Shown: positions 29,457-52,120 of the stretch, piece by piece
Layout: each line of letters begins with the position of its first letter
Numbering within the stretch: the stretch's first letter is position 1
From: a virus
Lineage: Duplodnaviria > Caudoviricetes
Direction: 5' to 3' (one strand)
Virus record (IMG/VR): IMGVR_UViG_3300012349_000007
Location: 1-55,820 of that record
DNA length: 55,820 nt
Notes under the pieces: model-generated
Told to the model about the DNA's origin: nothing
What the model saw: the letters and a program-made list of their open reading frames with translations, nothing else
Database searches by the model: none
Position numbers and translations under genes: made by a program

Positions 29457-29738
29457 GAATTTCCTCTTTCTATCGATATGGACGAACATATGGGGGTAAT
29501 CATGGCAGGTATCCTATCACAGTCGGGGGAAATGTGGGTGGAAATATGGTGAATATTTGCGCACAAGTGGAGCGATTTCTCAACATCAGGGGAGGCAAGC
29601 GAGGATTGCATAGGAATGTCAAAGGGTGTCTCGCTTGCCGTGAGATGCATCTGCTGAGAGTGTAGCACAAGTATTCTTGAAAAATCAAGAAATATCTTGT
29701 ATAACTTAACTAGGAATGTCAAACCTCCACACAGCAGT

Positions 29739-30779
29739 ATGACCAGAAACGACGAATGGCCGCCGTTTGCCTTTGCACCTTCAGACCCATGGGGAAGGTG
29801 CTATTTGTCATTCCTTCGCAGAAAGTTTGACCGATCTGGCAGTCAAAGTACGCTCGTCCACTACCGACAGTACCTCATCCAATTCTTCACGGAGCCCGTC
29901 GCAAAAATGCCAGATCGCTATACACGCGAGGATGTTGAGGCGTTTATTCATAGTCCTGGCCGGGGACCAGGGAGAGAAGGTGATCCGCCTTCTGTCGGCC
30001 TGATGAATAATAGGCTGAGCCTGTTAAACTCGTTCTACAACTATGCTGCAAGCTATAGCATCACTGGGGAAGACGGCAGTATAGAGCCATTAATGAAACG
30101 CATGTCACCGACTGCTGGGCTAAAGCACATGCAGCGGGAGCGTCCACCGTACCGTGCGATGACGGCTAATGAATTACAGCGCTTCTTTGATGCTATCCCC
30201 AAAGACACGGTTATCGGGCTCCGCGATAGAGCGTTATTTTTGACCTATTTCTACACGGCACGCAGGCGGAGCGAGATTGTTGATTTGCGCTGGGGCGACC
30301 TCGAATATGGAACCATCATTGATGGAAACATGCGGTACAATTCGTGGATTTACCATTTTCGTGGTAAAGGGCATAAGCGTCAAGATGACTCCGCGGAGTT
30401 GCCCCTCCCAGCGAAAGTAGCGATAGATCGCTATTTGGAAGTTTCGGGTCGGAAGGACAGCATCAAATCTGAAGACCCCATTTTCACTGCTGCTGATAGG
30501 CGATACAAAAGCAATCCACCGCGACCACTTCACCCTAACACGGTGTGGCACGCGGTGAAGGTCTACGCGGCTAAGGCAGGACTTGATCCGAGGAAAGTAA
30601 CAACGCACAGTTTCAGACACACAAGTGCCAGGCGTCGTTTTGAAGCCGGTTCAACTATTCGAGAAATTCAAATCCTGCTGCGTCACTCCACCATGGCCGT
30701 GACCCATCTGTATCTTGAAGAGTCGTCAGCAGCGGACCCTGGTGCGAAACTCCTGGAAAAGCTATTCGAAGATTTGTGA
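29739..30779 (+). CDS. tyrosine recombinase, XerC/D-like (1)
   Basis: RDRAL...TARRRSE, GKG, HSFRH, LRHS, HLY catalytic set. Confidence 0.95.
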   Translation: MTRNDEWPPFAFAPSDPWGRCYLSFLRRKFDRSGSQSTLVHYRQYLIQFFTEPVAKMPDRYTREDVEAFIHSPGRGPGREGDPPSVGLMNNRLSLLNSFYNYAASYSITGEDGSIEPLMKRMSPTAGLKHMQRERPPYRAMTANELQRFFDAIPKDTVIGLRDRALFLTYFYTARRRSEIVDLRWGDLEYGTIIDGNMRYNSWIYHFRGKGHKRQDDSAELPLPAKVAIDRYLEVSGRKDSIKSEDPIFTAADRRYKSNPPRPLHPNTVWHAVKVYAAKAGLDPRKVTTHSFRHTSARRRFEAGSTIREIQILLRHSTMAVTHLYLEESSAADPGAKLLEKLFEDL

Positions 30780-33983: not shown

Positions 33984-34181
33984 GTGATCACTATGGACTA
34001 TTTAACCGCAGAGGAGGTAGCTACAGAGCTTCGATATTCGGTCACAACTGTAAAACGGATGCTTCGTACCAACGAAATGCCAGGCTACAAGTTTGGCGGC
34101 GAATGGCGCATCGACCGGGCCGAGTACGAAGAGTGGAAGCGACAACGCAAAAATCAATATCAGAAACCAGCAGAGGATTAA
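33984..34181 (+). CDS. excisionase-like HTH_17 DNA-binding protein (2)
   Basis: YLTAEEVATELRYS...GYKFGGEWRI; AAGGAGG RBS. Confidence 0.9.
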   Translation: MITMDYLTAEEVATELRYSVTTVKRMLRTNEMPGYKFGGEWRIDRAEYEEWKRQRKNQYQKPAED

Positions 34182-34356
34182 CTGACCTTCTGGTTTTTCC
34201 AGTAGCGCACGTGCTGCAAAGAAGTCTCCACACACCTATGCAGCACGCTGTGTAGCACTACCTTGCTATCATTTTGCCATAGAACATGGCAAAAGGCAAG
34301 GGTAAGTTGCAGGGAATTCTACTGCTATTTCTAATGAACGTGAAGGGCAAAGGGCA

Positions 34357-35871
34357 ATGAATCAGCATAGTGTGAAGACCGAAGAGCAAAAGGATAACGA
34401 CAATTACGCAAAGAACTTTACACGAGTTCCTAACATTCTTTTTGAGTCGTATAAGTATCTCACCAAAGAAGAGGTGCTTCTCTACATACGGCTGCGCTAT
34501 ATCTACTGGGATACGAAGCCGCGCTATCTCTCTCTGAGAGAACTGGCAGATATAACCGGATACTCGACAGGGGCATTAAGCAAAATGCTACCGCGCCTGA
34601 CGATCGTCGGTTTAATCCATGCTGAAATCAGAAGGAAAAAGGGCAAAGACGGTAAGGAAAAAGGCAATCCCATATATCACATCACCATCAATGATATATG
34701 GGAAGAAAACCGCAAGTTCTTCACAGAAGGGCATTTTGACCCAAGTGAAGCGCTACTTGTTCACGAAATGAATGAAACCAGTTCACCAAATGAACAGGAT
34801 ACACCGAAACCAGTTCACCAAATGAACAAGCCTGTTCATAAAATGAACGACCCTGTTCACGAAACCAGACAAGATAGTTCACCAAATGAACAGGATCAAG
34901 CACAAAATAACCCACATAAGACTAATAGTAAGACTATTGATAATACTTCAACACAAGAAGAGAGTGTTACGCCCACCATTGCAGACGTGCCGGCATGTGG
35001 CGCTAACGCGCCAGCACTCTCTGCTTTGCCACTTCAAGAAAAAATGCTTGAAGAGGAAACGATCTGCTCTAAGTGTGGCAATCTTACTATCACCCCAAAT
35101 GATTGCCCTTGGTGTAAAGCGTCAAAACAAGTTTCCCTCCAAGAGAAAGGACAGACCGATGGAAGCAGCAACAATAATCATCGTCATCTCAGCAGTCTCA
35201 ATAGCCACCAACCTCTTCGTCAGCAATTGGATACTGCTGACGATACGCATGGAGCTACGCCTACTCAACAGAAAGAAGGATTAACCGATGGACATGACAG
35301 CATTCACAACCCTACTCATCTTCTGGATCATGGTAGCAATCTTAGCATTGGCACTCACAGCGATCGTCATCCTGGAAAATCGCCCGTAGCCCAACAGACA
35401 TCCACCTCCAAGCCTGTTCAGGAAGTCCCCCCACTTGCCACTTTGAGCAAGGTGCCTGAACAGGCCGCGTTGATGGCACCTGCGGAACCGAAACCGCGTG
35501 CCAGATCGGCACCGAAAAAGGCCGTAGAGAAGCCAGCGGGCCCGCCTCCAAGCGAGATGGAGTGGAGCACACGCAAATGTATGATGTTGTTCGATTTCTG
35601 GCGTGGAGCGCCACTGATCGGTACGTACAAAAACTCGCAGGCGTCCACGTGTGCGAAGGGATTAGCCGCCAACTACACCGAGCAGCAGGTAGTTGATGCG
35701 AGAACGGATATGGAAGCTGACATTTATTGGATGTCTCACGGAGGAGTAGATATCTGCGAGGTAGCGAACAACATCCACAAATATGTCAGGAAGCGCCAAC
35801 TAACTATTGTGGAGAAAGCTCCAGTGCCGGTGAAAATTGACCGCGAATACTTGAAGAGAGTGAAGCCATGA
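34357..35871 (+). CDS. replication initiator (lambda O-like, N-terminal wHTH)
   Basis: FTRVPN...LSLRELADITGYS wHTH, internal iterons, followed by DnaB. Confidence 0.85.
   Translation: MNQHSVKTEEQKDNDNYAKNFTRVPNILFESYKYLTKEEVLLYIRLRYIYWDTKPRYLSLRELADITGYSTGALSKMLPRLTIVGLIHAEIRRKKGKDGKEKGNPIYHITINDIWEENRKFFTEGHFDPSEALLVHEMNETSSPNEQDTPKPVHQMNKPVHKMNDPVHETRQDSSPNEQDQAQNNPHKTNSKTIDNTSTQEESVTPTIADVPACGANAPALSALPLQEKMLEEETICSKCGNLTITPNDCPWCKASKQVSLQEKGQTDGSSNNNHRHLSSLNSHQPLRQQLDTADDTHGATPTQQKEGLTDGHDSIHNPTHLLDHGSNLSIGTHSDRHPGKSPVAQQTSTSKPVQEVPPLATLSKVPEQAALMAPAEPKPRARSAPKKAVEKPAGPPPSEMEWSTRKCMMLFDFWRGAPLIGTYKNSQASTCAKGLAANYTEQQVVDARTDMEADIYWMSHGGVDICEVANNIHKYVRKRQLTIVEKAPVPVKIDREYLKRVKP
34759..34891. 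repeat. replication origin iterons GTTCA-N5-TGAAC
   Basis: Copies at 34759 (one mismatch), 34781, 34813, 34834, 34855 (half site) and 34877; spacing 21-22 or 32 bp; AT-rich tract follows. Confidence 0.85.
35159..35284 (+). CDS. overprinted 41 aa membrane peptide inside the initiator (+1 frame)
   Basis: AAAGGA RBS; MEAATIIIVISAVSIATNLFVSNWILLTIRMELRLLNRKKD. Confidence 0.55.
   Translation: MEAATIIIVISAVSIATNLFVSNWILLTIRMELRLLNRKKD
35288..35389 (+). CDS. overprinted 33 aa membrane peptide inside the initiator (+1 frame)
   Basis: GAAGGA RBS; MDMTAFTTLLIFWIMVAILALALTAIVILENRP. Confidence 0.55.
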   Translation: MDMTAFTTLLIFWIMVAILALALTAIVILENRP

Positions 35872-37205
35872 CCGAGAAATGGGTACCAACCAACGTGGAG
35901 GCAGAGGAAAGCGTGCTTTCTCACTTGCTCAGTGCTCCACGCAAAATCACGGAAGTGGTAGATCGTTTATCCCCTGAGCACTTCTGTTCAGATCGCGCCA
36001 GCCGTGTCTACCAACTCATGGTGACGTTAGCGCATCAGGGGAAGGCATGTACCGTCTCTAACGTCTATGATGCCTGGGCAAGAGCATATGGGGTGGACGA
36101 TGAAGTCTATGATTTTCTTGAAGACCGCTATGGCCTCTTTTCTGCATTCATGACGCCTTTTGAAGACCAGGTGGAGAAAGTCATTCGCGTGCATACCATG
36201 CGCCGTCTCATCTCAGCCGCTCAGCATATCGCAGAAGTCGCCTATGCTCAGGATGACAATGCTATGGACGTAGCCGAGCAACTTATTTACGATATTGCCA
36301 GGGGCGTAGACGGTGATACAGTGGCAACGCTGGCGCAAGTGAAGCAGCGCTACATGCAAGAGTTTGAGCAACGGCGTGAAAACCTCCTCAACGGCATAGC
36401 CAATGGCATTCCGACCGGCTTTCATGAGCTAGATGTCATCTTAGGCGGTTTGCAGCCCTCCAATCTCTATACCCTCGCAGCTCGTCCTAGCCTGGGTAAG
36501 ACAGCCCTGGCACTCAACTTTGCTCTCTACATCGCTAGACATGCCCGCCGGTGCCTGTTTTTTAGCCTGGAGATGAGTGAGTTAGAGTTATTCCAGCGCT
36601 TGCTAGCCATAGAAACGCCTGTCGATCAATCGTTCTTACGCGACGGCGATGTGAACGAGCAGGAACTTGAAGATATCCGCTACACGGCTAACGACCTGGC
36701 TGAACTCGATATGTTGATAGATGACCGAACCTATACCCTGGCTGGTATATGCAGCAAGGCCCGGCGTGAACATGCCCGCAAACCACTTAATCTCATCGTG
36801 GTTGATTACCTCCAATTGATCGATACTTCCCCGGAAGGGCGAAACAAGAACAAGATGCGCTACGAGGAAGTAGGCGAATTCTCGAAACGGTTGAAACGTC
36901 TGGCCAAAGAGTTGAAAGTGCCGGTCATTGCCATAGCGCAACTCAACCGCGACGTGGAAAGCCGACAAAGCCCAAAGCCGCGTATGTCTGATTTAGGCGA
37001 AAGTGGCAAACTTGAGCAGGATATGGACGTTGTGGCCTTCGTCTACTGCGAGGAAACTGAGCTTGCAAAAAAGGAGAACTGCGAACCGTACAAAGTCCAT
37101 GTTCACGTGGCCAAGCACCGTAATGGACGCTTAGGCGATGTCGAGTTGTGGTTCAGGCCCCGGATCACCAAATTCCAGGATGAGGAGCCGGACTATGAGC
37201 AATGA
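35868..37205 (+). CDS. dnaB: replicative DNA helicase, DnaB family
   Basis: AARPSLGKT, FSLEMS, IVVDYLQL, AQLNR, SGKLEQDMD, KHRNG. Confidence 0.97.
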   Translation: MTEKWVPTNVEAEESVLSHLLSAPRKITEVVDRLSPEHFCSDRASRVYQLMVTLAHQGKACTVSNVYDAWARAYGVDDEVYDFLEDRYGLFSAFMTPFEDQVEKVIRVHTMRRLISAAQHIAEVAYAQDDNAMDVAEQLIYDIARGVDGDTVATLAQVKQRYMQEFEQRRENLLNGIANGIPTGFHELDVILGGLQPSNLYTLAARPSLGKTALALNFALYIARHARRCLFFSLEMSELELFQRLLAIETPVDQSFLRDGDVNEQELEDIRYTANDLAELDMLIDDRTYTLAGICSKARREHARKPLNLIVVDYLQLIDTSPEGRNKNKMRYEEVGEFSKRLKRLAKELKVPVIAIAQLNRDVESRQSPKPRMSDLGESGKLEQDMDVVAFVYCEETELAKKENCEPYKVHVHVAKHRNGRLGDVELWFRPRITKFQDEEPDYEQ

Positions 37206-40365: not shown

Positions 40366-41118
40366 ATGTATACCTACACATTGTCTTATCCTGAAGATTA
40401 CCTTGAGCTAGAGAAAGCAGGTACCATCTTCTATGTGGGTAAGGGAACGGGTAATAGGATACATCAGCATGAGAGGGAGGCTAGAAGGGGCGGGAAAGGC
40501 TATAAGTGTAACGTTATCCGCAAGATAGAAGCTTTGGGAGGAAAGGTTGTCAAAAAGATACTTGCCCACTTCAGCACACATAAAGAGGCTACTTGGTATG
40601 AAATAGCGTTAATCTTTTTTCTGCCTAATTTAACGAACTTAACATTAGGCGGTGATGGTTTAGTAGGCTATGTCATGACCACAGAGCACAAAACAAACAT
40701 AGGCAAGTCGATTAAGGTCTATACCCGTACTGAAGAGGAAAAGAAGCATTTAGCAGTACTTCGTACTGGCAAAACCACTTCTGCTGAGACACGAATAAGG
40801 CAGGGCATAGCTCATCAAGAGTTAACCCATACTGAGGAGGCAAAGCGGAAAATTCAAGTTGCTAATACGGGACGCAAAATGCCGAAAGAAGCCATTGAAA
40901 GGCGCATATTGATTATGGAAGGGAAGCCAAGGATCATCAATCACTCAGGGAGAACCTATTCGGGGCTCATTGCGCCTAATGGTCAACAGTACGATAACAT
41001 CACCAATCTTACAGCATTTTGTAGAGAACATGGGTTACAACAACCTCAATTAAATCTGGTTGCAAATGGTAAGCGAAAATCATATAAGGGTTGGCATTTG
41101 CGACAAGAGGGAGCATAG
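40366..41118 (+). CDS. GIY-YIG homing endonuclease with NUMOD3-like repeats
   Basis: YTYTL...FYVGKG...RI..H, HTEEAKRKI repeats, C-terminal FCREHGL...KGW. Confidence 0.9.
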   Translation: MYTYTLSYPEDYLELEKAGTIFYVGKGTGNRIHQHEREARRGGKGYKCNVIRKIEALGGKVVKKILAHFSTHKEATWYEIALIFFLPNLTNLTLGGDGLVGYVMTTEHKTNIGKSIKVYTRTEEEKKHLAVLRTGKTTSAETRIRQGIAHQELTHTEEAKRKIQVANTGRKMPKEAIERRILIMEGKPRIINHSGRTYSGLIAPNGQQYDNITNLTAFCREHGLQQPQLNLVANGKRKSYKGWHLRQEGA

Positions 41119-41206: not shown

Positions 41207-43595
41207 ATGAGCCAGGAAGATGAGCTTATTGAACTCAACAGCGTCTACCACAACTGTCGTTCCCGCATGGCCCAACTCGAAGCCATCTTGCGCGAATACG
41301 TGAGCTTGTTGGAAGATTATAGGCTGGAAGGTGATGAAAAGCAGTATTTCTTTCGCGCCACAGAGGAGGAGCGGGATGCCTTGCAGAAACGCGCGAAGAA
41401 ACTGTTAGCAAAGGTTGACAATGAAAAAGCCCATTCAGAAGCCTAAATCACAGAAACGTTGTCGTTGTGGATCGCCGAAGTGCTCCACGTGTGGGAAATG
41501 TCACAATCGCTGGTGCTACATTGGCGACAAGACCGGCCCATATTGTGGAGGTTGATAGATGACACGTTCGCACAACGAAACCAGGAAAAGCCGGAAGGAG
41601 GCACCCAATCCGGTGAAAAGGACTGGCATGAGAAGAGAACTCGTGTTCGCTCTCATCGGGCTAGCGCTCGGCCTCATCGCCTGGTATCTGCTTGTGAGGG
41701 CAGGAATGATTGTCAATTGAAAGGAGCAACTGATGCCTGAATTTCCATCCCGTTTCACCTGGTGCAACTACTGCAACATGCAAAAATGGTGCTACTGGGT
41801 CAGGCGGGGGATAGGCAATATATGGCTGTGCTCTGAGTGCGCGAGAAAGACACGATAAGGAGGCATGATGTACTGTCAATGGAATCCGAAAGAGGACAGG
41901 AAAGCCCGAAACGATGATCCGACTCATCATGATGCGGAGTGCTACGCTATTCCATCGGGAGGCACGGATATCTGGTATTTGTGCCAGAAATGCCTTAGCC
42001 TTCCCCGTTTTACCAATTTTCGGGATGTTGGGAAAATCATCAGTCACTATGAATTTTGGTTCAGGAGTTGGGGGAGGAGAAATGCCTGAATTATCGCAAC
42101 AGCAGCGTGCATGGCTCGAAGGCGAAGCGCACGATGTCGCGCAAATCTGCCAGCATATGCAGTGGGATAGGAAGTCGGCCAAAGATCAAATCCTGGCTAC
42201 CTTTCGTATCGGAGAAGAGGAATGGCACGGCACGGTAGACGAGCATCGAGAAGAAATCGAGGGAATTGTGTGTAGTGCGTTAGATAGCATTTATGGGATA
42301 GAGACAAAGTAGAAAGCGAGAGTGCGGTGATAGTGGAGTGGAAACAGAGAATGAAAGATATGTTGTTTAGGGTGCTGTGCGTGCTCCGTCCCACGGAGCG
42401 GCCCAGCGAGACTGAATTGATAGCGTACGGCAAGGAAATGGAGCGACGGCACATGAAAGCTAGCGTGTGGATCGACCCAGCAGTCAAGCCCTGCGCCTAT
42501 CCACAGGTGGCAGCATACGAGCCGCCACAGCGTACGACTGATCCAGTGAAAGTGCCCTATCCACACGGCGCGTACTTTCTCCAGGAGCGGAAACGCTACA
42601 CCTGGATTGTGGATACCGAGACGCAGGGGCTGCACGCAATCACGCAAGAACGGATGCAGGAATTGCTGAGGAAGGTGGAACCATGAGCGGCCAATTTCTT
42701 GTGCTCCACGACCAGGACTACGCCTCTCGTGTGCGTCAGGCCATAGCGCGTGATGTGTGCGCAATGAGCAGTGTCTTTGTGCCAGCAGTCGAGAAGAAAC
42801 AACGGCGTTCTCGGCGCAAAACGAAACCGTTGCCGCGTTTTCACGACCGGCAAACGGAAGTGGGAACCTACACGACGGTGCCGAGTATGGAGGATAGATG
42901 AGCGGATCTGAACTTTTCTGGGCGACCTATTTCATGCTGAGTGGCATGATCGTCAATGTTGCACTTGTCATGGCCCTGGCGCTGTTCCTGGTCCTCTGGC
43001 TAGCGGGCCTAGTGGAGGATGCCCAGCGTCGGCAGACAATTCCTCCCCGGCCTAAAGACGCGGGGCTTCCTTGCCTGAACGTTTGTGAATATACCGATGA
43101 GTTGACGGGCATTCGTATGACGATAGACCAGGATAATCCTAGGTATCCTGGACATCCTAAGATTACTGTCATTTGTCCAGAAGGGCGCATACTTTCTCTT
43201 GAGCAGATAAACGAAGCACTCAGCCGACTACGACATAGAGCAGGAGTAGCATCTGAGTTGTTTCCTGATGTTCTGCACAGTGAAATGCGGTGAAACATCC
43301 ATGATACAGTTGAAGCAATCGTTACTCGATGAGACGGGAGAGGTGAACCATGCAGCCGAACGATTTGCGCGGCCACAGCCCGCCGCAATATGAGCTCTAC
43401 ATCCGACGCAGTGACCGAGCCTTGAAATTGGTCGAGCAGCACTCACGTCGTCCCGTTGCGATTGAGAGGGTGCTAGGGAGCCTTAGAGAATCGAGAGGTC
43501 TGTTTATCGTACTGCAAGACAAACGAAGGGTTACGCCTTATCTGATGGGCGATGAGATTCATTGGGTGAGCGAGTTTCCGAGCAGGGGAGGGTAG
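41207..43595 (+). CDS. run of small coupled genes including Cys-rich microproteins (41421-41555, 41733-41858, 41865-42089) and TM proteins (41559-41720, 42898-43293)
   Basis: RBSs and stop-start overlaps; CRC/CSTC, CNYC...CSEC and CQKC motifs. Confidence 0.6.
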
Positions 43596-43627
43596 GTTAG
43601 GAGGCAGTTTTCACCGCCTCCTGCTAG

Positions 43628-43810
43628 CTAGTGTTTCCGTTCTATTTGCTTTGCACAGGCTTCACATTTGCCCGTCTCGTGGTCAATGAGTTCCATGCGA
43701 GTATCCACCGGTCGGTGGCACTCACTGCACTCTTGCAATGGAACTTCTGTCCACTGGCTAAGCGCCTTACCATCATGGGCCCAGGCTCTGAATACTTGGT
43801 TCTTTCTCAT
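43628..43810 (-). CDS. Zn-ribbon microprotein with its own promoter
   Basis: AAGGAG RBS; CSEC...CEAC. Confidence 0.75.
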   Translation of the reverse strand: MRKNQVFRAWAHDGKALSQWTEVPLQECSECHRPVDTRMELIDHETGKCEACAKQIERKH

Positions 43811-43855
43811 TTTCGCTTCTCCTTGACTCAATTTTGTGTTTCCTTCACTATCTAT

Positions 43856-43884
43856 ATTATAGCACATAGTCACCAATTAGTCAA
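43856..43884 (-). promoter_or_regulatory. strong sigma70-type promoter
   Basis: TTGACT-N17-TATAAT with TGn. Confidence 0.8.
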
Positions 43885-43893
43885 CACTTTAGT

Positions 43894-43921
43894 AACCAAT
43901 TTTCAACGAATTTTGAAAACT
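43894..43921. repeat. 28 bp direct repeat with internal dyad, copy 1
   Basis: AACCAATTTTCAACGAATTTTGAAAACT, identical at 44812-44839. Confidence 0.9.
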
Positions 43922-43940
43922 CATAAAACTCGTTGAGGGA

Positions 43941-44112
43941 GGTGCTATTTTTTGAAAAAATAGCACCAGTTTCTCTCAATCAGTTTCTTTATAATGCGTT
44001 TCTCTCACAAGGTTTCTTTCTTAGTACGATGTCTAGGGAGTAGACCCCAGCGGTCTAAAGGCTAGACGAAGCGGTCTACTCAGTAGACCTCCTGGACGTC
44101 TACCGTCTAGAC
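43941..44112. repeat. second origin-like region: palindrome, AT-rich repeats and four iterons
   Basis: GGTGCTATTTTTT-G-AAAAAATAGCACC; four GTTTCT repeats at 14-15 bp; GTCTA-N5-TAGAC at 44031, 44053, 44074, 44098. Confidence 0.8.
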
Positions 44113-44454
44113 CCCTCGTACTTTCAGCTTGTAATACTTCTTAATTCTGGCTTTATCTCGTTCATCCTTTTTGCAGAGCAGATAGCCATGTTCTACCGCT
44201 CTTGCAATGCCATCGAGTACGGATTGTCTGCTGAGCCCTGTTCCATAATCGAGATTATTTCTTCCCTCCATAAATTCCTTAATGGTGATCTTTTTCCATT
44301 GATCGATCTCACCAAATCCCCAGGTATGACGCGCAACGTAGAAAAGGATCTTGAGCTCTGCGAGATTATCAACCTCCCTGAAAACGTCAATCCAATCATG
44401 GGGTATGCGAGTAAACCCGTATTCATTCGGGTTATCGAAACCTTCAAAAGTCAT
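44107..44454 (-). CDS. truncated O-like replication initiator (DNA-binding domain only)
   Basis: FTRIPHDWID...AELKILFYVARHTWGF...GTGLSRQSV...GYL; stops inside the first iteron. Confidence 0.8.
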   Translation of the reverse strand: MTFEGFDNPNEYGFTRIPHDWIDVFREVDNLAELKILFYVARHTWGFGEIDQWKKITIKEFMEGRNNLDYGTGLSRQSVLDGIARAVEHGYLLCKKDERDKARIKKYYKLKVRGV

Positions 44455-44557
44455 ATTTGCCTACATGCTATAATAGCAAGTGTCTAGCTAGAGGGCACGC
44501 GCCAGCTATCTACAGGTTTGGAATTCCAGTGGTATATATTGTGCGCGTGTCCTGGGC

Positions 44558-44746
44558 CTATGCTACTTCTTTTGCCTGCTTGTTATCCGCTAATCTTTCA
44601 TTTAATGCCTTGCATCTCCTATAAGCACCCTGCTTTTGTGGATAGACTTTTGTGTTATACGGCACCCTGTCGTTATAGTGAATCGGAGCCGAAGGACACC
44701 AAAAAATCTGATATCCACCCTCAACGGGAAACACCTTGTACTCCAT
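44558..44746 (-). CDS. small hypothetical protein with its own promoter (TTGACT-N17-TACCTT, 44813-44785)
   Basis: AAGGAG RBS and promoter consensus. Confidence 0.7.
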   Translation of the reverse strand: MEYKVFPVEGGYQIFWCPSAPIHYNDRVPYNTKVYPQKQGAYRRCKALNERLADNKQAKEVA

Positions 44747-44811
44747 ATTTGTCTCCTTTTTGTTATTATTGCCTTCCCTTTTATAAGGTAACATATAAAC
44801 AACGAGAAGTC

Positions 44812-44839
44812 AACCAATTTTCAACGAATTTTGAAAACT
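44812..44839. repeat. 28 bp direct repeat with internal dyad, copy 2
   Basis: Identical to 43894-43921. Confidence 0.9.
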
Positions 44840-44862
44840 GGTGCTTTTTCGTTGTTAAAGTG

Positions 44863-44891
44863 TTGACTTTTCGTTACCTGTGTGGTATTAT
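44863..44891 (+). promoter_or_regulatory. sigma70-type early promoter
   Basis: TTGACT-N17-TATTAT with TGn. Confidence 0.75.
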
Positions 44892-44932
44892 TAGATCAGT
44901 GAAGAACACAAAAACAAACTGAGGGGGACGAA

Positions 44933-45217
44933 ATGACAAGGATCAACACCAGCCGCCAAGCGGTATCAGCCATGCAGAGGAATTGCACCTACAAGGCATC
45001 TGGTGCCATCGCCCAGCACGTTATCAATGCAACGGTCGAGCTCGACAGCACAGATCCGGTGCTCTACATCGATAGCAAGTTCTTGGTAGCCAGCAAGTTC
45101 AGCAATCGCTACTACACTTGCAAGCTGGTTCGTGGCCAGTGGACGTGTAGCTCGCAAGATGCGAGCGTAGCAGCTCGGTGCATCGCTCAGGCTCGGGCCT
45201 TCAGGCAGAGCTGGTAA
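44933..45217 (+). CDS. hypothetical protein, degenerate SWIM-like
   Basis: FLVASK...RYYT...WTCS...RCI; GAGGGGG RBS. Confidence 0.65.
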   Translation: MTRINTSRQAVSAMQRNCTYKASGAIAQHVINATVELDSTDPVLYIDSKFLVASKFSNRYYTCKLVRGQWTCSSQDASVAARCIAQARAFRQSW

Positions 45218-46072: not shown

Positions 46073-46764
46073 ATGGGCAATATACACTTTGTTGATAGAA
46101 CAGGTGAGCGATATGGGATGCTAAATGCTTCTATGTTGAACTTGCGGAATATCGAGCCCGGAAAAGAACTAACAGCCGGTACCAGGCGGAAGTAGACAAG
46201 CCCTATTCCGCAAATCTTCTCTGGAAGCATATAGTCATTCTCTCTTTTGCCGGAATACACATTGACTCTTGCGGACATAAGCGCCGTATGTGGCTATGCC
46301 AATGTGACTGTGGCAATACTAAAGTTCTAAAGTTCAGTGATATGTCAGGCAACCATACAAGAAGTTGTGGATGTTTGGTCAGAGAAGTCAATAAAAATAA
46401 CACCTACCGCCAAAAGCCTGATGGTTCATCGGCATTCAATCAACTTTACTTGGCTTACAAGAAAAGTGCTCGTTACCGAGGGTTATCCTTCGAGATTACA
46501 GAAGGTGAGTTTAGAATGCTCACAAAAAGCGATTGCTTTTATTGTGACCTACCACCTTCTTTACAAGCAAGTACTGTGAAGAAAACGCATGGAGAATATA
46601 TCTACACGGGTATTGATCGTATAGATAACTCTAAAGGATACACCCTAGATAATGTAAAACCATGTTGTAAGCAATGTAATTATGCCAAGCGGGATTTATC
46701 AGAACAAGAGTTTTTGGAGTGGATAACGCGCTTAGCTGCGCACCTAGTGATGCAAGAGAGGTGA
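46073..46764 (+). pseudogene. HNH-type endonuclease gene disrupted by a 110 bp insertion
   Basis: DRTGERYGML | VILSFAG...WLCQCDCG...SCGC...CFYC...GIDRIDNSKGY...CCKQCN; halves in different frames. Confidence 0.85.
46124..46231. mobile_element. MITE, IS630/Tc1-mariner type, with TA duplication
   Basis: C-TA[AATGCTTC...GAAGCATA]TA-G; internal IR TTGCGGAATA/TATTCCGCAA; removal restores CTAG and the reading frame. Confidence 0.75.
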
Positions 46765-50468: not shown

Positions 50469-51398
50469 ATGGATGGCCTTGTTCCCTATCAGCAACAGCG
50501 TATAGAGCAATCAATTGTAGACGTTTTAAAGATCCTTGATAGCAAGGAGTCAAAGCGAGTCTACAATCTTGATATTGCCTACTTTGCTGAGTGGATGAAA
50601 GAAAAGCACCTGACTTACCAATCTGTGACTACCTCAGATATTATCGCTTATCGTGAGCTGCTAGGGCAGACATTTAAGAAAGCTACATCGCAACGCATGT
50701 TTTCAGTTATTCGACGTCTTTTTAAGATGCTTGTTAGTCGAGGTGTGCGAACTGATGACCCTATCACGGATGTAAAGGGTTTCAAGCTTGCTAATGAGAG
50801 TACCCATATAGCTCTGAGCAAAAAGCAAGCAGAAAATCTATTAGACTCAATTGATACAAGCAGCCCAAAGGGCAAGCGTGATTATGCATTACTATCTCTC
50901 CTTTTACGGACTGGCATCCGACGCTCTGAATGTGCTGCATTGAATATAGGCGACTTAAGTACAGAGGAGGGATATCATATTGCCACTATCCAACATGGAA
51001 AAGGAGATAAACGGCGTATCGTGAAAATACCTGTAGACGTCTTTCGCTCCTTAGAGAGATATATACAAGCCTCTGGTAGAACTATAACATCACTGGATAA
51101 CCCGCTCTTTATCGGTTTTGATAGACGTCCTGAGTATGAAAGCCAACGCATTAGCGAGAAGGTGATAGAGCGTGTGGTTAGAGAATATGGTAAAAATATT
51201 GGCTTCTTACCTCCAAAGAGGCTTACCCCTCACGATTTGCGGACGTCGTTTATCACACTCTCAAGGGAAGGTGGAGCTACCTTAGAGCAGAGGCAATTTG
51301 CAGCAGGTCATTCAGACCCGCGCACAACACAACGCTATGATGTCCGCAAACTAAACCTAGACCATAATGCAGTAGATTATATTCACTTGTGGGAGTAA
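50469..51398 (+). CDS. tyrosine recombinase, XerC/D-like resolvase (2)
   Basis: RDYAL...TGIRRSE, GKG, PHDLR, AGHSDPRTTQRY. Confidence 0.95.
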   Translation: MDGLVPYQQQRIEQSIVDVLKILDSKESKRVYNLDIAYFAEWMKEKHLTYQSVTTSDIIAYRELLGQTFKKATSQRMFSVIRRLFKMLVSRGVRTDDPITDVKGFKLANESTHIALSKKQAENLLDSIDTSSPKGKRDYALLSLLLRTGIRRSECAALNIGDLSTEEGYHIATIQHGKGDKRRIVKIPVDVFRSLERYIQASGRTITSLDNPLFIGFDRRPEYESQRISEKVIERVVREYGKNIGFLPPKRLTPHDLRTSFITLSREGGATLEQRQFAAGHSDPRTTQRYDVRKLNLDHNAVDYIHLWE

Positions 51399-52120
51399 AC
51401 GATCAGATGCTACAAAACCTAGGAACTGGAAAATGTGACACTTGTTTAGAAAGCCCTCGCCCTTTGTTTTCGTTTCATCAGGAATGCGTTTATGTTCGTA
51501 ACCCTGGTGAGGGGAGATATTGCCCTGCTTGCATTCTCACTTTTCAACAGGAATGTGATGTACCTCCGCGTGAATGGTTACGCCGTTGTGATGATTGCTT
51601 TACGTATATGGCATTCAAAGACCTTCTGCGGCATGAGCGGATAAAACATCGATGGTGGGGTTTTTGTCCTGACTGCATGGCAAAACAAATCAGGCGGAAT
51701 AGCCTTACCTGTGTAGTATGCGGTGAGTCCACACTTGAATATACATACCTTTCTCGTATCCATTCTACATGCGAGAAATGCTATGTGCATTCACCAAAGT
51801 TAGCGGTAGTCATGTATCATAATAGCAGAGCAAAAGCATTGAACTTGCCTGCTACACTGACAACAGAGCAATGGGAACAAGCTATAAAACATTTCAATCA
51901 TCGTTGTGCTTATTGTCCTGACGGGCCTTATGAAGTACTAGAACATTTTTTACCTTTATGTCTTGGAGGTGGTACAGTAGCAAATAACTGTGTGCCTGCT
52001 TGCCATTCCTGTAATGTTCGTAAGAAGGATAAGCACCCTAACGACTTCAGCAGATTGTTTCCGGCTTCGAACATCGCTCGTATCACGGCGTATCTGGCTC
52101 AGCACGTTGGCGTGCTATAA
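51389..52120 (+). CDS. HNH endonuclease with multiple N-terminal CxxC motifs
   Basis: CAYC...EHFLPLCLGG...NCVPACHSCNVRK. Confidence 0.85.
   Translation: MGVNDQMLQNLGTGKCDTCLESPRPLFSFHQECVYVRNPGEGRYCPACILTFQQECDVPPREWLRRCDDCFTYMAFKDLLRHERIKHRWWGFCPDCMAKQIRRNSLTCVVCGESTLEYTYLSRIHSTCEKCYVHSPKLAVVMYHNSRAKALNLPATLTTEQWEQAIKHFNHRCAYCPDGPYEVLEHFLPLCLGGGTVANNCVPACHSCNVRKKDKHPNDFSRLFPASNIARITAYLAQHVGVL

Follow-up and report, generated by a model that had tools for sequence, protein, structure and literature searches.

Introduction

The initiators of lambda-type phages consist of two domains, one half binding the origin and the other bringing the helicase, and the origin of lambda also has a palindrome beside its AT-rich region. 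Iteron arrays can be located outside a working origin, as in incA of P1, where the array controls replication. Lactococcal Per is reportedly an origin-derived form of phage exclusion. The locus described here, hereafter the cassette, lies on the minus strand of the window, which is the whole 55,820-base stretch of the IMG/VR virus record IMGVR_UViG_3300012349_000007. It contains a gene for a 115-amino-acid (aa) O-like protein, the mini-initiator, followed by four palindromic iterons, AT-rich repeats, and a palindrome. The reading favored here, still tentatively, is that selection maintains the cassette as a second, orthogonal origin of the lambda O/ori type, which receives its helicase in trans.

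Several described systems are close enough to serve as a reference. The lambda origin carries four iterons with internal dyad symmetry that bind dimers of the O protein, and the adjacent AT-rich region opens (as outlined in an excerpt of PMC5043065). The iterons of plasmids, according to the same excerpt, are direct repeats bound by monomers of Rep proteins with two winged helices (PMC5043065). Phage SPP1 possesses two origin sites bound by G38P, oriL and oriR, the second of which is proposed to act via protein binding and not as the main starting point (PMC3485210, in excerpt). The lambda inhibition phenotype occurs when a fragment of the iteron origin provided in trans blocks the phages having the same origin, an effect which needs the oop RNA (PMC3349717, in excerpt).

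Architecture of the Cassette

The mini-initiator gene (44107-44454, minus strand) encodes a winged-helix N-domain only, as indicated by the list of open reading frames (ORFs), the homologs, the structural model, and the ratio of nonsynonymous to synonymous substitution rates (dN/dS). Its TAG stop codon (44109-44107) is composed of two arm bases and the first spacer base of the iteron at 44098-112. This iteron is the first of four perfect copies of GTCTA-N5-TAGAC found by motif count (44098-112, 44074-88, 44053-67, and 44031-45), with a start-to-start spacing of 24, 21, and 22 bp. Four exact copies are present in the window, where 0.03 are expected, and this number was reached in none of 100 shuffles. 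When up to two mismatches are allowed, 15 matches are found versus 14.5 expected, and only the four perfect, clustered copies stand out.

The iterons are followed by an AT-rich unwinding-type region (43969-44030, minus strand), which consists of the junction CATCGTAC and four (A/G)AGAAAC units. The AGAAAC hexamers (GTTTCT on the plus strand) are located at 44017-12, 44003-43998, 43988-83, and 43974-69, that is, 14-15 nucleotides (nt) apart. Because this hexamer is common in the window (34 copies versus 25 expected), the phased cluster, and not the hexamer itself, is the signal. Next to it lies a 27-bp palindrome, GGTGCTATTTTTT-N-AAAAAATAGCACC, with 12 pairs (43941-43967). As RNA, the palindrome folds with -22.5 kcal/mol (z = -6.2), and none of 200 shuffles folds as well. 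It may be an origin palindrome, the terminator hairpin of the operon, or both. A scan of positions 43300-45100 against Rfam gave nothing close to any gathering score.

Reading on in the frame of the mini-initiator leads to the stops TAG116, TGA125, TAG131, TGA150, and TAG170, the first three of which fall in the iteron spacers or at an arm edge, while the arms stay perfect. These features had been noticed in the original prediction, and the ORF and motif counts agree with its description of a 115-aa winged helix-turn-helix ORF stopping in the first of four perfect iterons, with phased GTTTCT repeats and a 27-bp palindrome behind them and with stops in the variable spacers. There is no coding capacity 3′ of the cassette origin. 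The nearest helicase gene (35868-37205) stands beside another, full-length initiator, the main initiator of the window. Recoding or an alternative genetic code was considered and rejected, since both TAG and TGA break the frame and no C-terminal coding region comes after them.

The Mini-Initiator and Its Family

The mini-initiator is, by homology, the N-terminal domain of an O-like initiator family of Chloroflexota phages. It carries all 23 invariant columns of the family alignment, and the N-domain motifs AELK, RHTWG, GTGLS, and D..R..Y.L are distributed throughout its 115 aa. The identity to the N-domains of proteins of 203-473 aa reaches 50-56% across 96-99% of its length. The relatives comprise 112 proteins of 63-202 aa and 183 proteins of 203-2000 aa, and in a library of 1.84 billion proteins the family includes 3050 representative clusters at E ≤ 1e-3 and 559 at E ≤ 1e-30. 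The usual members have 240-670 aa and contain both the iterons and the AGAAAC box inside the gene.

The family is annotated through relatives with 50-56% identity. Among 23 aligned proteins, seven match phrog_678, "replication initiation O-like" (best E = 2.6e-07), which is the same PHROG as that of the main initiator of the window, and three match phrog_270. Pfam Phage_rep_O (PF04492) is found in one of the 23 (E = 4.1e-4), and a C-terminal DnaA_N domain in one. In the AlphaFold model (predicted local distance difference test score, pLDDT, 76.2; predicted template modeling score, pTM, 0.69), the mini-initiator adopts a winged helix-turn-helix fold, in which the recognition helix spans about residues 76-88 and is accompanied by a beta wing. 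A Foldseek search of the PDB with this model returned no match at E ≤ 0.001 (best E 0.018). The structural neighbors include the N-domain of DnaD, MarR/PadR, Fur, TFE-alpha, and the winged helices of ORC and plasmid initiators, none of which stands out.

A first scan of genome contigs with the alignment of short forms gave no locus; the second scan gave the genome loci used here. Since 17 of the 21 genome loci with the family come, by record title, from metagenome-assembled genomes of Chloroflexota or Thermomicrobia (Ktedonobacteria, Chloroflexia, Anaerolineae, and others), they indicate the likely host phylum. A DnaB- or DnaC-like gene is located at most 4 kb downstream on the same strand in 17 of 69 long-form loci; this count covers loci with at least 2.5 kb of downstream sequence and comes from a tblastn search with two queries and low sensitivity.

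The long members share one arrangement, in which the N-domain is followed by peptide repeats encoded by the iterons and then by a conserved RSEKET(L/K)ER motif. At the DNA level, the latter corresponds to a box, CG(A/T)(T/A)CAGAGAAAGAnACT..AGAAAGAnAC, common to 62 distinct long forms. The synonymous positions of the box are conserved too, with Glu always encoded by GAG, Lys by AAA, and Thr by ACT. Because conservation extends to these positions, the AGAAAGAnAC box of the long forms can be read as a translated cis-acting DNA element, presumably the unwinding region.

The window retains CATCGTAC-TA-AGAAAGAAAC and three more AGAAAC units, and for this reason the in-frame string RHRTKKETL*EKR appears beyond the mini-initiator stop. 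This string (...PRHRTKKETL*EKR...) aligns with the RSEKET(L/K)ER of full-length relatives, and the frame and the distance from the last iteron to the box are the same as in the long forms (CCTAGACATCGTACTAAGAAAGAAAC in the window versus TCTAGACATCGATCAGAGAAAGAAAC in locus L007). The units AGAAAGAnAC occur every ~12-13 nt in the long forms, while the AGAAAC units of the short forms are 14-16 nt apart. The period of AGAAAC seems to have changed after the coding constraint was lost.

A separate variant of the family is represented by protein P0125 (216 aa) and by L119:9265-9609 with the next ~100 aa, in which the N-domain is fused to an HNH endonuclease-like tail. The tail has the pattern CxxC...HH...CxxC, and there are no iteron-encoded repeats between the two parts. 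Such a fusion could be a nuclease directed at the origin sequence.

Age and Maintenance of the Short Form

The truncation is not a recent event, because the closest relatives are short as well, the short forms cluster on the tree, and the dN/dS ratios are low. The closest relatives, with 59-79% identity, end at the first iteron as well, and short proteins among them are P0003 (124 aa, 75% identity), P0005 (117 aa, 73%), and P0004 (117 aa, 69%). Short forms, defined by at most 33 residues after the domain, account for 13 of the 83 loci with a complete ORF, which come from metagenomes and genomes and are not dereplicated. L002/L003, L004-6, and L011 stop with GTC TAA within the GTCTA-type first iteron and have the GTCTA-type arms in common with the window. 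The loci L015, L026, L064, and L076 carry AGGAGA..TCTCCT or AGGAAC..GTTCC iterons, and their ORFs end at or just before the first one.

The tree was obtained by a quick maximum-likelihood search over 79 distinct N-domains, with midpoint rooting and support from the Shimodaira–Hasegawa-like approximate likelihood ratio test (SH-aLRT); L063, which has a stop within the domain, was left out. Of the ten distinct short rows, eight group together (SH-aLRT 92), and L010 and L011 are neighbors of this group. Two changes on the tree suffice to explain the short label, compared with a mean of 9.6 after shuffling, and none of 500 shuffles matched this value. The dN/dS ratio is 0.079 between the window and L002 (with dS saturated), 0.095 between L004 and L005 (dN 0.022, dS 0.225), and 0.034 between L015 and L026, with an overall range of 0.03-0.11 for the short forms. 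Judged by these values and by the tree, the short state is old and maintained by purifying selection. The exception is L062, which shares an identical N-domain with the long form L057 and retains a DnaC-like neighbor. By this identity, it is a recent truncation separate from the old short clade.

The non-coding part has also been preserved. The origin regions are identical at 127 of 187 positions between the window and L002 and at 124 of 195 between the window and L004 (64-68%), while the synonymous sites are saturated. The GTCTA arms are invariant and the spacers free, and the arms are perfect in the window (four iterons) and in L002 (three iterons). By eye, AGAAAC-type repeats with a spacing of ~14-16 nt come after the iterons in all short forms with enough downstream sequence, except for L062 and L063. 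In every short form with enough downstream sequence, L010, L011, and L076 included, these repeats stand at a fixed distance from the last iteron. The AT-rich region of the window aligns with that of its short relatives and is homologous to the AGAAAC box of the long forms. The palindrome has the same offset in the window, L002, L004, and L005, with arms which differ but remain complementary, and a paired T>A/A>T change between L004 and L005 is compensatory. The features of the short-form clade, i.e., an ORF ending at or in the first iteron, then iterons and AGAAAC repeats, with no adjacent helicase gene, are all found in the window. Selection on the iterons, the AT-rich repeats, and the protein is thus supported by these comparisons.

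Such results change part of the picture given by the original prediction. Its assignment of an O-like identity is supported, through the family, for the winged-helix N-domain, and the DNA sites which it assumed to be under selection do appear so, given the invariant arms and the conserved non-coding origin at saturated dS. The supposed protein remnant "RTKKET" is instead the AGAAAC unwinding-type box, conserved as DNA in the 62 distinct long forms. The idea of a recently broken, decaying gene had to be given up in view of the old short-form clade, the short relatives, and the dN/dS range. The comparison of homologs for conserved truncation and dN/dS, which had been suggested as a check, found the close homologs short and the ratios at 0.03-0.11, and not the full-length homologs, stops confined to the window, and ratios near 1 which would have counted against the prediction. 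A plasmid state, also envisaged there, received no support, with no partition gene among the ORFs scanned, which were not every ORF.

Predicted Iteron Recognition and Dimerization

Long and short forms alike show covariation between the iteron arms and the two residues following "GLS", where the recognition helix begins. The pair KP occurs with GTAAA-N5-TTTAC in more than 20 loci, NR with GTGAA-N5-TTCAC, D(R/W) with AGGA-type arms, and ER with TGCA-type arms. The pair (K/R)Q is associated with GTCTA-N5-TAGAC, in the long forms L007/L009, L077, L029, and L055 as well as in the short forms of the window, L002/3, and L004-6. The automatic arm call was misled by a T/A palindrome in the window, L002, and L004, and the arms were taken there from the exact motif count and inspection. 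The mini-initiator is predicted to read the GTCTA-type iterons.

The homodimer model of the mini-initiator scored 0.71, and the best of three controls 0.00. This score is the model's own confidence and not a measurement; of the proteins solved as same-chain pairs, 20 of 30 attained 0.71, as did one of 23 solved as single chains. The dimer runs agree in at least 98% of contacts with a partner pLDDT of at least 86, and the interface, formed by residues 3-26 and 110-115, leaves the recognition helix free. Natural proteins with two N-domains in tandem, in effect single-chain dimers, exist as well (P0237 and P0238). The homodimer model, which passes the controls, and these tandem proteins fit an arrangement of one mini-initiator dimer per palindromic iteron, as for lambda O (PMC5043065). 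The protein P0237 starts with a stretch which, by our own reading of its sequence, resembles domain I of DnaA.

Co-Resident Initiators and the Replication Module

The cassette is, by gene content, an accessory module, always extra beside a full initiator, because all four viral genomes with a short form have a full initiator next to a DnaB-like gene elsewhere. These genomes are G000 (the window), G001 (109.8 kb), G002 (55.1 kb), and G003 (122.5 kb), and the initiator-like gene is immediately upstream of the DnaB-like gene in each of them. The initiators are the O-like P0001 in G000, a family member with a 380-aa frame in G002, and P0235 in G001 and P0236 (739 aa) in G003, both with repeated peptide motifs. 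The last two, neither of which has a PHROG match, are called initiators by position and peptide repeats. In addition, the gene directly upstream of the L064 short form encodes a 391-aa family member. The contig bearing L009 and L031 (42,217 bases) has its two full-length family initiators at opposite ends, so that they would be neighbors if the contig were circular. Co-resident family members differ in the helix motif and iteron arms in all four pairs (L104, L109, L064, and L009/L031), and the iteron specificities also differ in both short-form genomes where the two initiators are family members.

In the window, the main initiator (P0001, 504 aa, O-like) occupies 34357-35871 on the plus strand (phrog_678, E = 2.2e-06), and its stop overlaps the start of the DnaB-like replicative helicase gene (35868-37205, plus strand; phrog_19, E = 1.6e-86; PF03796, E = 3.8e-84). 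The main origin contains four perfect GTTCA-N5-TGAAC iterons at 34781-34891, a number reached in none of 100 shuffles, and an additional copy with one mismatch at 34759. All of them (34759-34891) are inside the 504-aa gene. The match in geometry expected between the two origins extends to the array of 5-N5-5 palindromic iterons and not to the unwinding repeats, as no AGAAAC is present from 34162 to 36611. The difference in specificity that had been claimed along with it is borne out, since GTCTA-N5-TAGAC in the cassette and GTTCA-N5-TGAAC in the main origin each have four perfect copies.

The mini-initiator and the main initiator have nothing detectable in common beyond a short motif (BLASTP E = 0.059; hhalign probability 1.9%). 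A C-terminal domain of ~95 aa in the main initiator, with the motif ..LFDFWRG.., recurs on P0188 and P0235, whose N-domains are unrelated; the last 95 aa of P0235, which adjoins the DnaB gene of G001, are 42% identical to those of P0001. The carriers of this domain adjoin a DnaB-like gene where the context is known (G000 and G001). It is probably a helicase-contact domain, and its presence on unrelated N-domains points to the shuffling of N- and C-domains among initiators.

Genomic Context

The record is classed as linear with a CheckV completeness of 99%, and the gene content of this soil phage suggests a temperate siphovirus. In 45 ORFs of the window, PHROG scans matched a tape measure, a major head protein, and a large terminase, together with two tyrosine integrases (29697-30779 and 50469-51398) and three HNH/endonuclease VII-like genes in the early region (40366-41118, 46288-46764, and 51389-52120). 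The second of these integrases (309 aa) shares 22-27% identity with those encoded near other short forms and is no ortholog of them. The GC skew follows the gene orientation and marks no origin in the window. A DNA search of 50,697 phage records gave no match. Because the mini-initiator and two flanking proteins, each used singly as a query against viral contigs, retrieved no relatives, no close relative of the phage lacking the cassette was found.

The cassette forms a minus-strand block amid plus-strand early genes. Upstream of the mini-initiator, and probably co-transcribed with it, lies a small minus-strand ORF (44558-44746; 62 aa from an internal ATG), which has no Pfam, PHROG, or Atlas lead and shares 72% identity with the ORF in the corresponding position of L005/L006. 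The convergent 81-aa ORF at 43350-43595 has a relative in L004 (49% identity). As these two ORFs have relatives there, the neighborhood is partly syntenic in related phages. In L002 and L004, by our own reading of the sequence, the upstream place is taken by an excisionase-like helix-turn-helix ORF. A split gene, with the upstream ORF as the C-terminal part of the long form, was rejected (best E = 0.51). In the 109.8-kb record, L011/L103:7996-9648 codes for a TROVE/Ro60-vWA protein and adjoins the short form on its upstream side.

The intergenic leader between the two ORFs (44455-44557, minus strand) contains an inverted repeat, CACGCGC...GCGCGTG (44470-44550). In by-eye alignment, it recurs with different arms in L002, L004, L005, L015, and L026. 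The fold of the window leader is unexceptional alone (z = -1.35), and the inverted repeat may serve in attenuation, termination, or processing.

On either side of the cassette stands one copy of a perfect 28-nt direct repeat, whose dyad core reads TTTTCAA-N6-TTGAAAA. Copy 1 (43894-43921) is just upstream of the minus-strand promoter, and copy 2 (44812-44839) is between the minus-strand cassette and the plus-strand promoter, so each copy adjoins one near-consensus promoter. The minus-strand promoter is of the sigma-70 type (TTGACT-17-TATAAT, 11/12, 43856-43884; consensus match only), and the plus-strand one is located at 44863-44891. Only two copies of the repeat are present in the window, and two or more were found in one of 100 shuffles; its core was not found in any of the 137 other loci, and the relatives lack the repeat. 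A stretch like 44788-44832, with 3-6 differences, was found in other contigs of the same soil runs; the contigs with the matching stretch all come from soil DNA runs, with no RNA run among those listed. No joint deleting the 918 bp between the repeats was seen in these contigs. The repeat is probably the operator of a shared regulator, not a transposition scar. The minus-strand promoter precedes a 60-aa ORF (43628-43810, minus strand) with a zinc-ribbon-like CxxC...CxxC pattern, which weakly matches phrog_2800 (E = 0.0055) and has no Pfam or Atlas lead. Among the relatives, the gene downstream of the origin varies, while the origin architecture is constant.

Possible Functions of the Cassette

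In the favored reading, the 115-aa protein would dimerize, and one dimer would occupy each of the four GTCTA-N5-TAGAC palindromes. The loaded array would then strain and open the adjacent AGAAAC region, by analogy with lambda O at ori-lambda. The helicase would have to come in trans, either as the phage's own DnaB-like protein or as a host factor, because the mini-initiator is without the C-terminal helicase/loader-recruiting domain of its full-length relatives. As a result, the cassette would fire as a second origin with a specificity orthogonal to that of the main GTTCA-type origin. While the analysis shows the anatomy, the homology, the conserved short form, purifying selection, the orthogonality, and the accessory status of the cassette, we infer the binding, the opening, and above all the firing. 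Opening of the origin type is favored because the AGAAAC repeats have been kept at a fixed distance without coding constraint, whereas a pure roadblock or a purely dominant-negative protein would not need such repeats.

Several observations weigh against this reading. The mini-initiator itself has no Pfam match at E ≤ 1, no PHROG match at E ≤ 0.01, and no match to the PDB by sequence profile at E ≤ 1, and a wide VIA-align search gave Z values of 7-9 to many generic winged helices (best 9.3). The UUUU directly after the 27-bp palindrome suggests that the latter may be a mere operon terminator. No helicase-recruiting domain is present, and no old short form has a helicase or loader gene next to it; among the seven short-form loci with at least 2.5 kb of downstream sequence, a DnaB- or DnaC-like gene is found within 4 kb downstream in one, which is the recent truncation L062. 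Moreover, two full-length initiators can occur in one phage (L109, and L009 with L031), so a second firing origin needs no truncation. The persistence of a form without helicase recruitment where two full initiators can coexist is the expected look of an anti-initiator, and the loading of the helicase may even be unwanted.

The main competing explanation, a serious one of lower probability, is origin-specific interference. The DNA-binding-only dimer, made from a promoter of its own, would occupy the GTCTA-type iterons of superinfecting phages whose full-length initiator has the same specificity and poison their origin complex. The cassette's own iterons would serve as a decoy or pairing partner, and immunity of the resident phage would follow from the GTTCA-N5-TGAAC iterons of its main origin. 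A DNA-binding domain without effector, kept under purifying selection, is the classic dominant-negative design, and the cassette is always extra and always orthogonal to the resident initiator. Possible targets are at hand in the full-length initiators with the same helix and GTCTA-type iterons in other contigs (L007/L009, L077, L029, and L055). The cassette also stands apart on the minus strand, amid plus-strand genes and with near-consensus promoters close by, and other short forms have accessory-like neighbors, such as the Gp49/HTH_37 pair in L064, the integrase in L011, and the GNAT, DUF6610, TnpB-like fragment, and integrase genes in L108. A precedent is the plasmid with oop and the lambda iterons ITN3-4, which excludes rep-lambda phages, although the AT-rich part is not required there (both from an excerpt of PMC3349717). 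A block by protein only leaves the fixed distance of the AGAAAC repeats from the last iteron unexplained, and four sites on a single-copy prophage are a weak titration sink. The same difficulty with the AGAAAC repeats is met by an unlikely third explanation, a replication barrier or mode switch, in which the loaded array would stall forks from the main origin ~9 kb away and lead to recombination-dependent concatemers. A tightly binding DNA-binding-only protein would suffice for such a roadblock, the early-region cassette is ~8 kb from the main initiator-DnaB pair in G000 and G002, and RecT or AAA_24 recombination genes are found near the short forms in L026, L108, and L005. However, DnaB is 26 kb away in G001 and 106 kb away in G003 (~16 kb if circular). 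The proposed role of G38P at oriR of SPP1 (PMC3485210, in excerpt) is a precedent with one initiator at both sites, and the dedicated second specificity that it would require here lacks an obvious reason.

The remaining explanations take the cassette away from replication. A domesticated transcription factor, with the iterons as operators of neighbors such as the Cys-rich ORF, would agree with the resemblance of the fold to MarR, PadR, Fur, and TFE winged helices, with the promoter ~150 bp beyond the iterons, and with the label "PadR family regulator" given to family members by some sources. It is quite unlikely, given that the iterons overlap no promoter (this promoter-like site being the nearest), the downstream gene varies under a constant origin architecture, the AGAAAC box shares homology with the origins that full-length initiators carry inside their genes, and no regulator family of Pfam matches even at E = 1. 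A neutral relic, the decaying leftover of a replaced replication module, would account for a truncated gene with five in-frame stops downstream, and a genuine recent truncation does exist in the family (L062). It is very improbable in view of dN/dS values of 0.03-0.11, a short state shared by relatives down to ~50% identity, and perfect arms in a non-coding origin conserved at 64-68% despite saturated dS.

The interference idea may be extended to the family as a whole. The short forms would then be natural anti-initiators of temperate Chloroflexota phages, combining a rival's DNA-binding-only initiator with a decoy origin against superinfection; this generalization is a doubtful one that merits consideration. 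If it is true, the many iteron specificities with their matching helix residues would be the trace of an arms race over origins, and the N-domain-HNH fusions would add a second such weapon. A cassette which blocks rivals would represent a new form of superinfection exclusion targeting replication origins. If the cassette fires, as the favored reading holds, origin opening and helicase delivery are separable in nature, and a small orthogonal pair of origin and binder becomes available for a little-studied phylum. In addition, the family offers a readable code of helix residues and iteron arms across hundreds of uncultivated phages, which is directly testable.

Comparison with Described Systems

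A keyword search of open-access literature found no description of a natural, conserved, DNA-binding-only O-like initiator with a complete origin. The criteria of iteron-plasmid Reps (RepA/pi/RepE) point away from the cassette, which has a single winged helix, palindromic iterons, and a predicted homodimer; the likeness is confined to repeated initiator sites by an AT-rich region and to the possibility of iteron arrays outside the working origin. SPP1 resembles the window in having two origin-type sites that bind initiators in one phage genome. It differs in using one full-length initiator for both sites, while each site of the window has its own protein and specificity, and the second of these proteins is DNA-binding-only.

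The closest likeness is to lambda O/ori. The cassette shows the sequence of about four dyad-symmetric iterons and then an AT-rich region, next to an N-terminal DNA-binding domain. The location of the origin within the initiator frame, typical of lambda, is found in the long relatives of the family and not in the cassette, whose ORF ends in the first iteron. A C-terminal helicase/loader-recruiting domain, equivalent to the P-binding half of O, is missing from the cassette, as is an adjacent P-like or helicase gene, and the cassette is second to a complete module. The homology to O at the family level is weak (phrog_678 in 7 of 23 members, PF04492 in 1 of 23).

The lambda inhibition phenotype and Per rest on constructs which were made in the laboratory on multicopy plasmids and include no dedicated DNA-binding protein. 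The cassette, in comparison, is natural, single-copy, and conserved, has its own protein, and retains the unwinding region. It thus presents a natural and conserved case in which a normal replication module is always accompanied by a complete further origin and only the binding half of an initiator.

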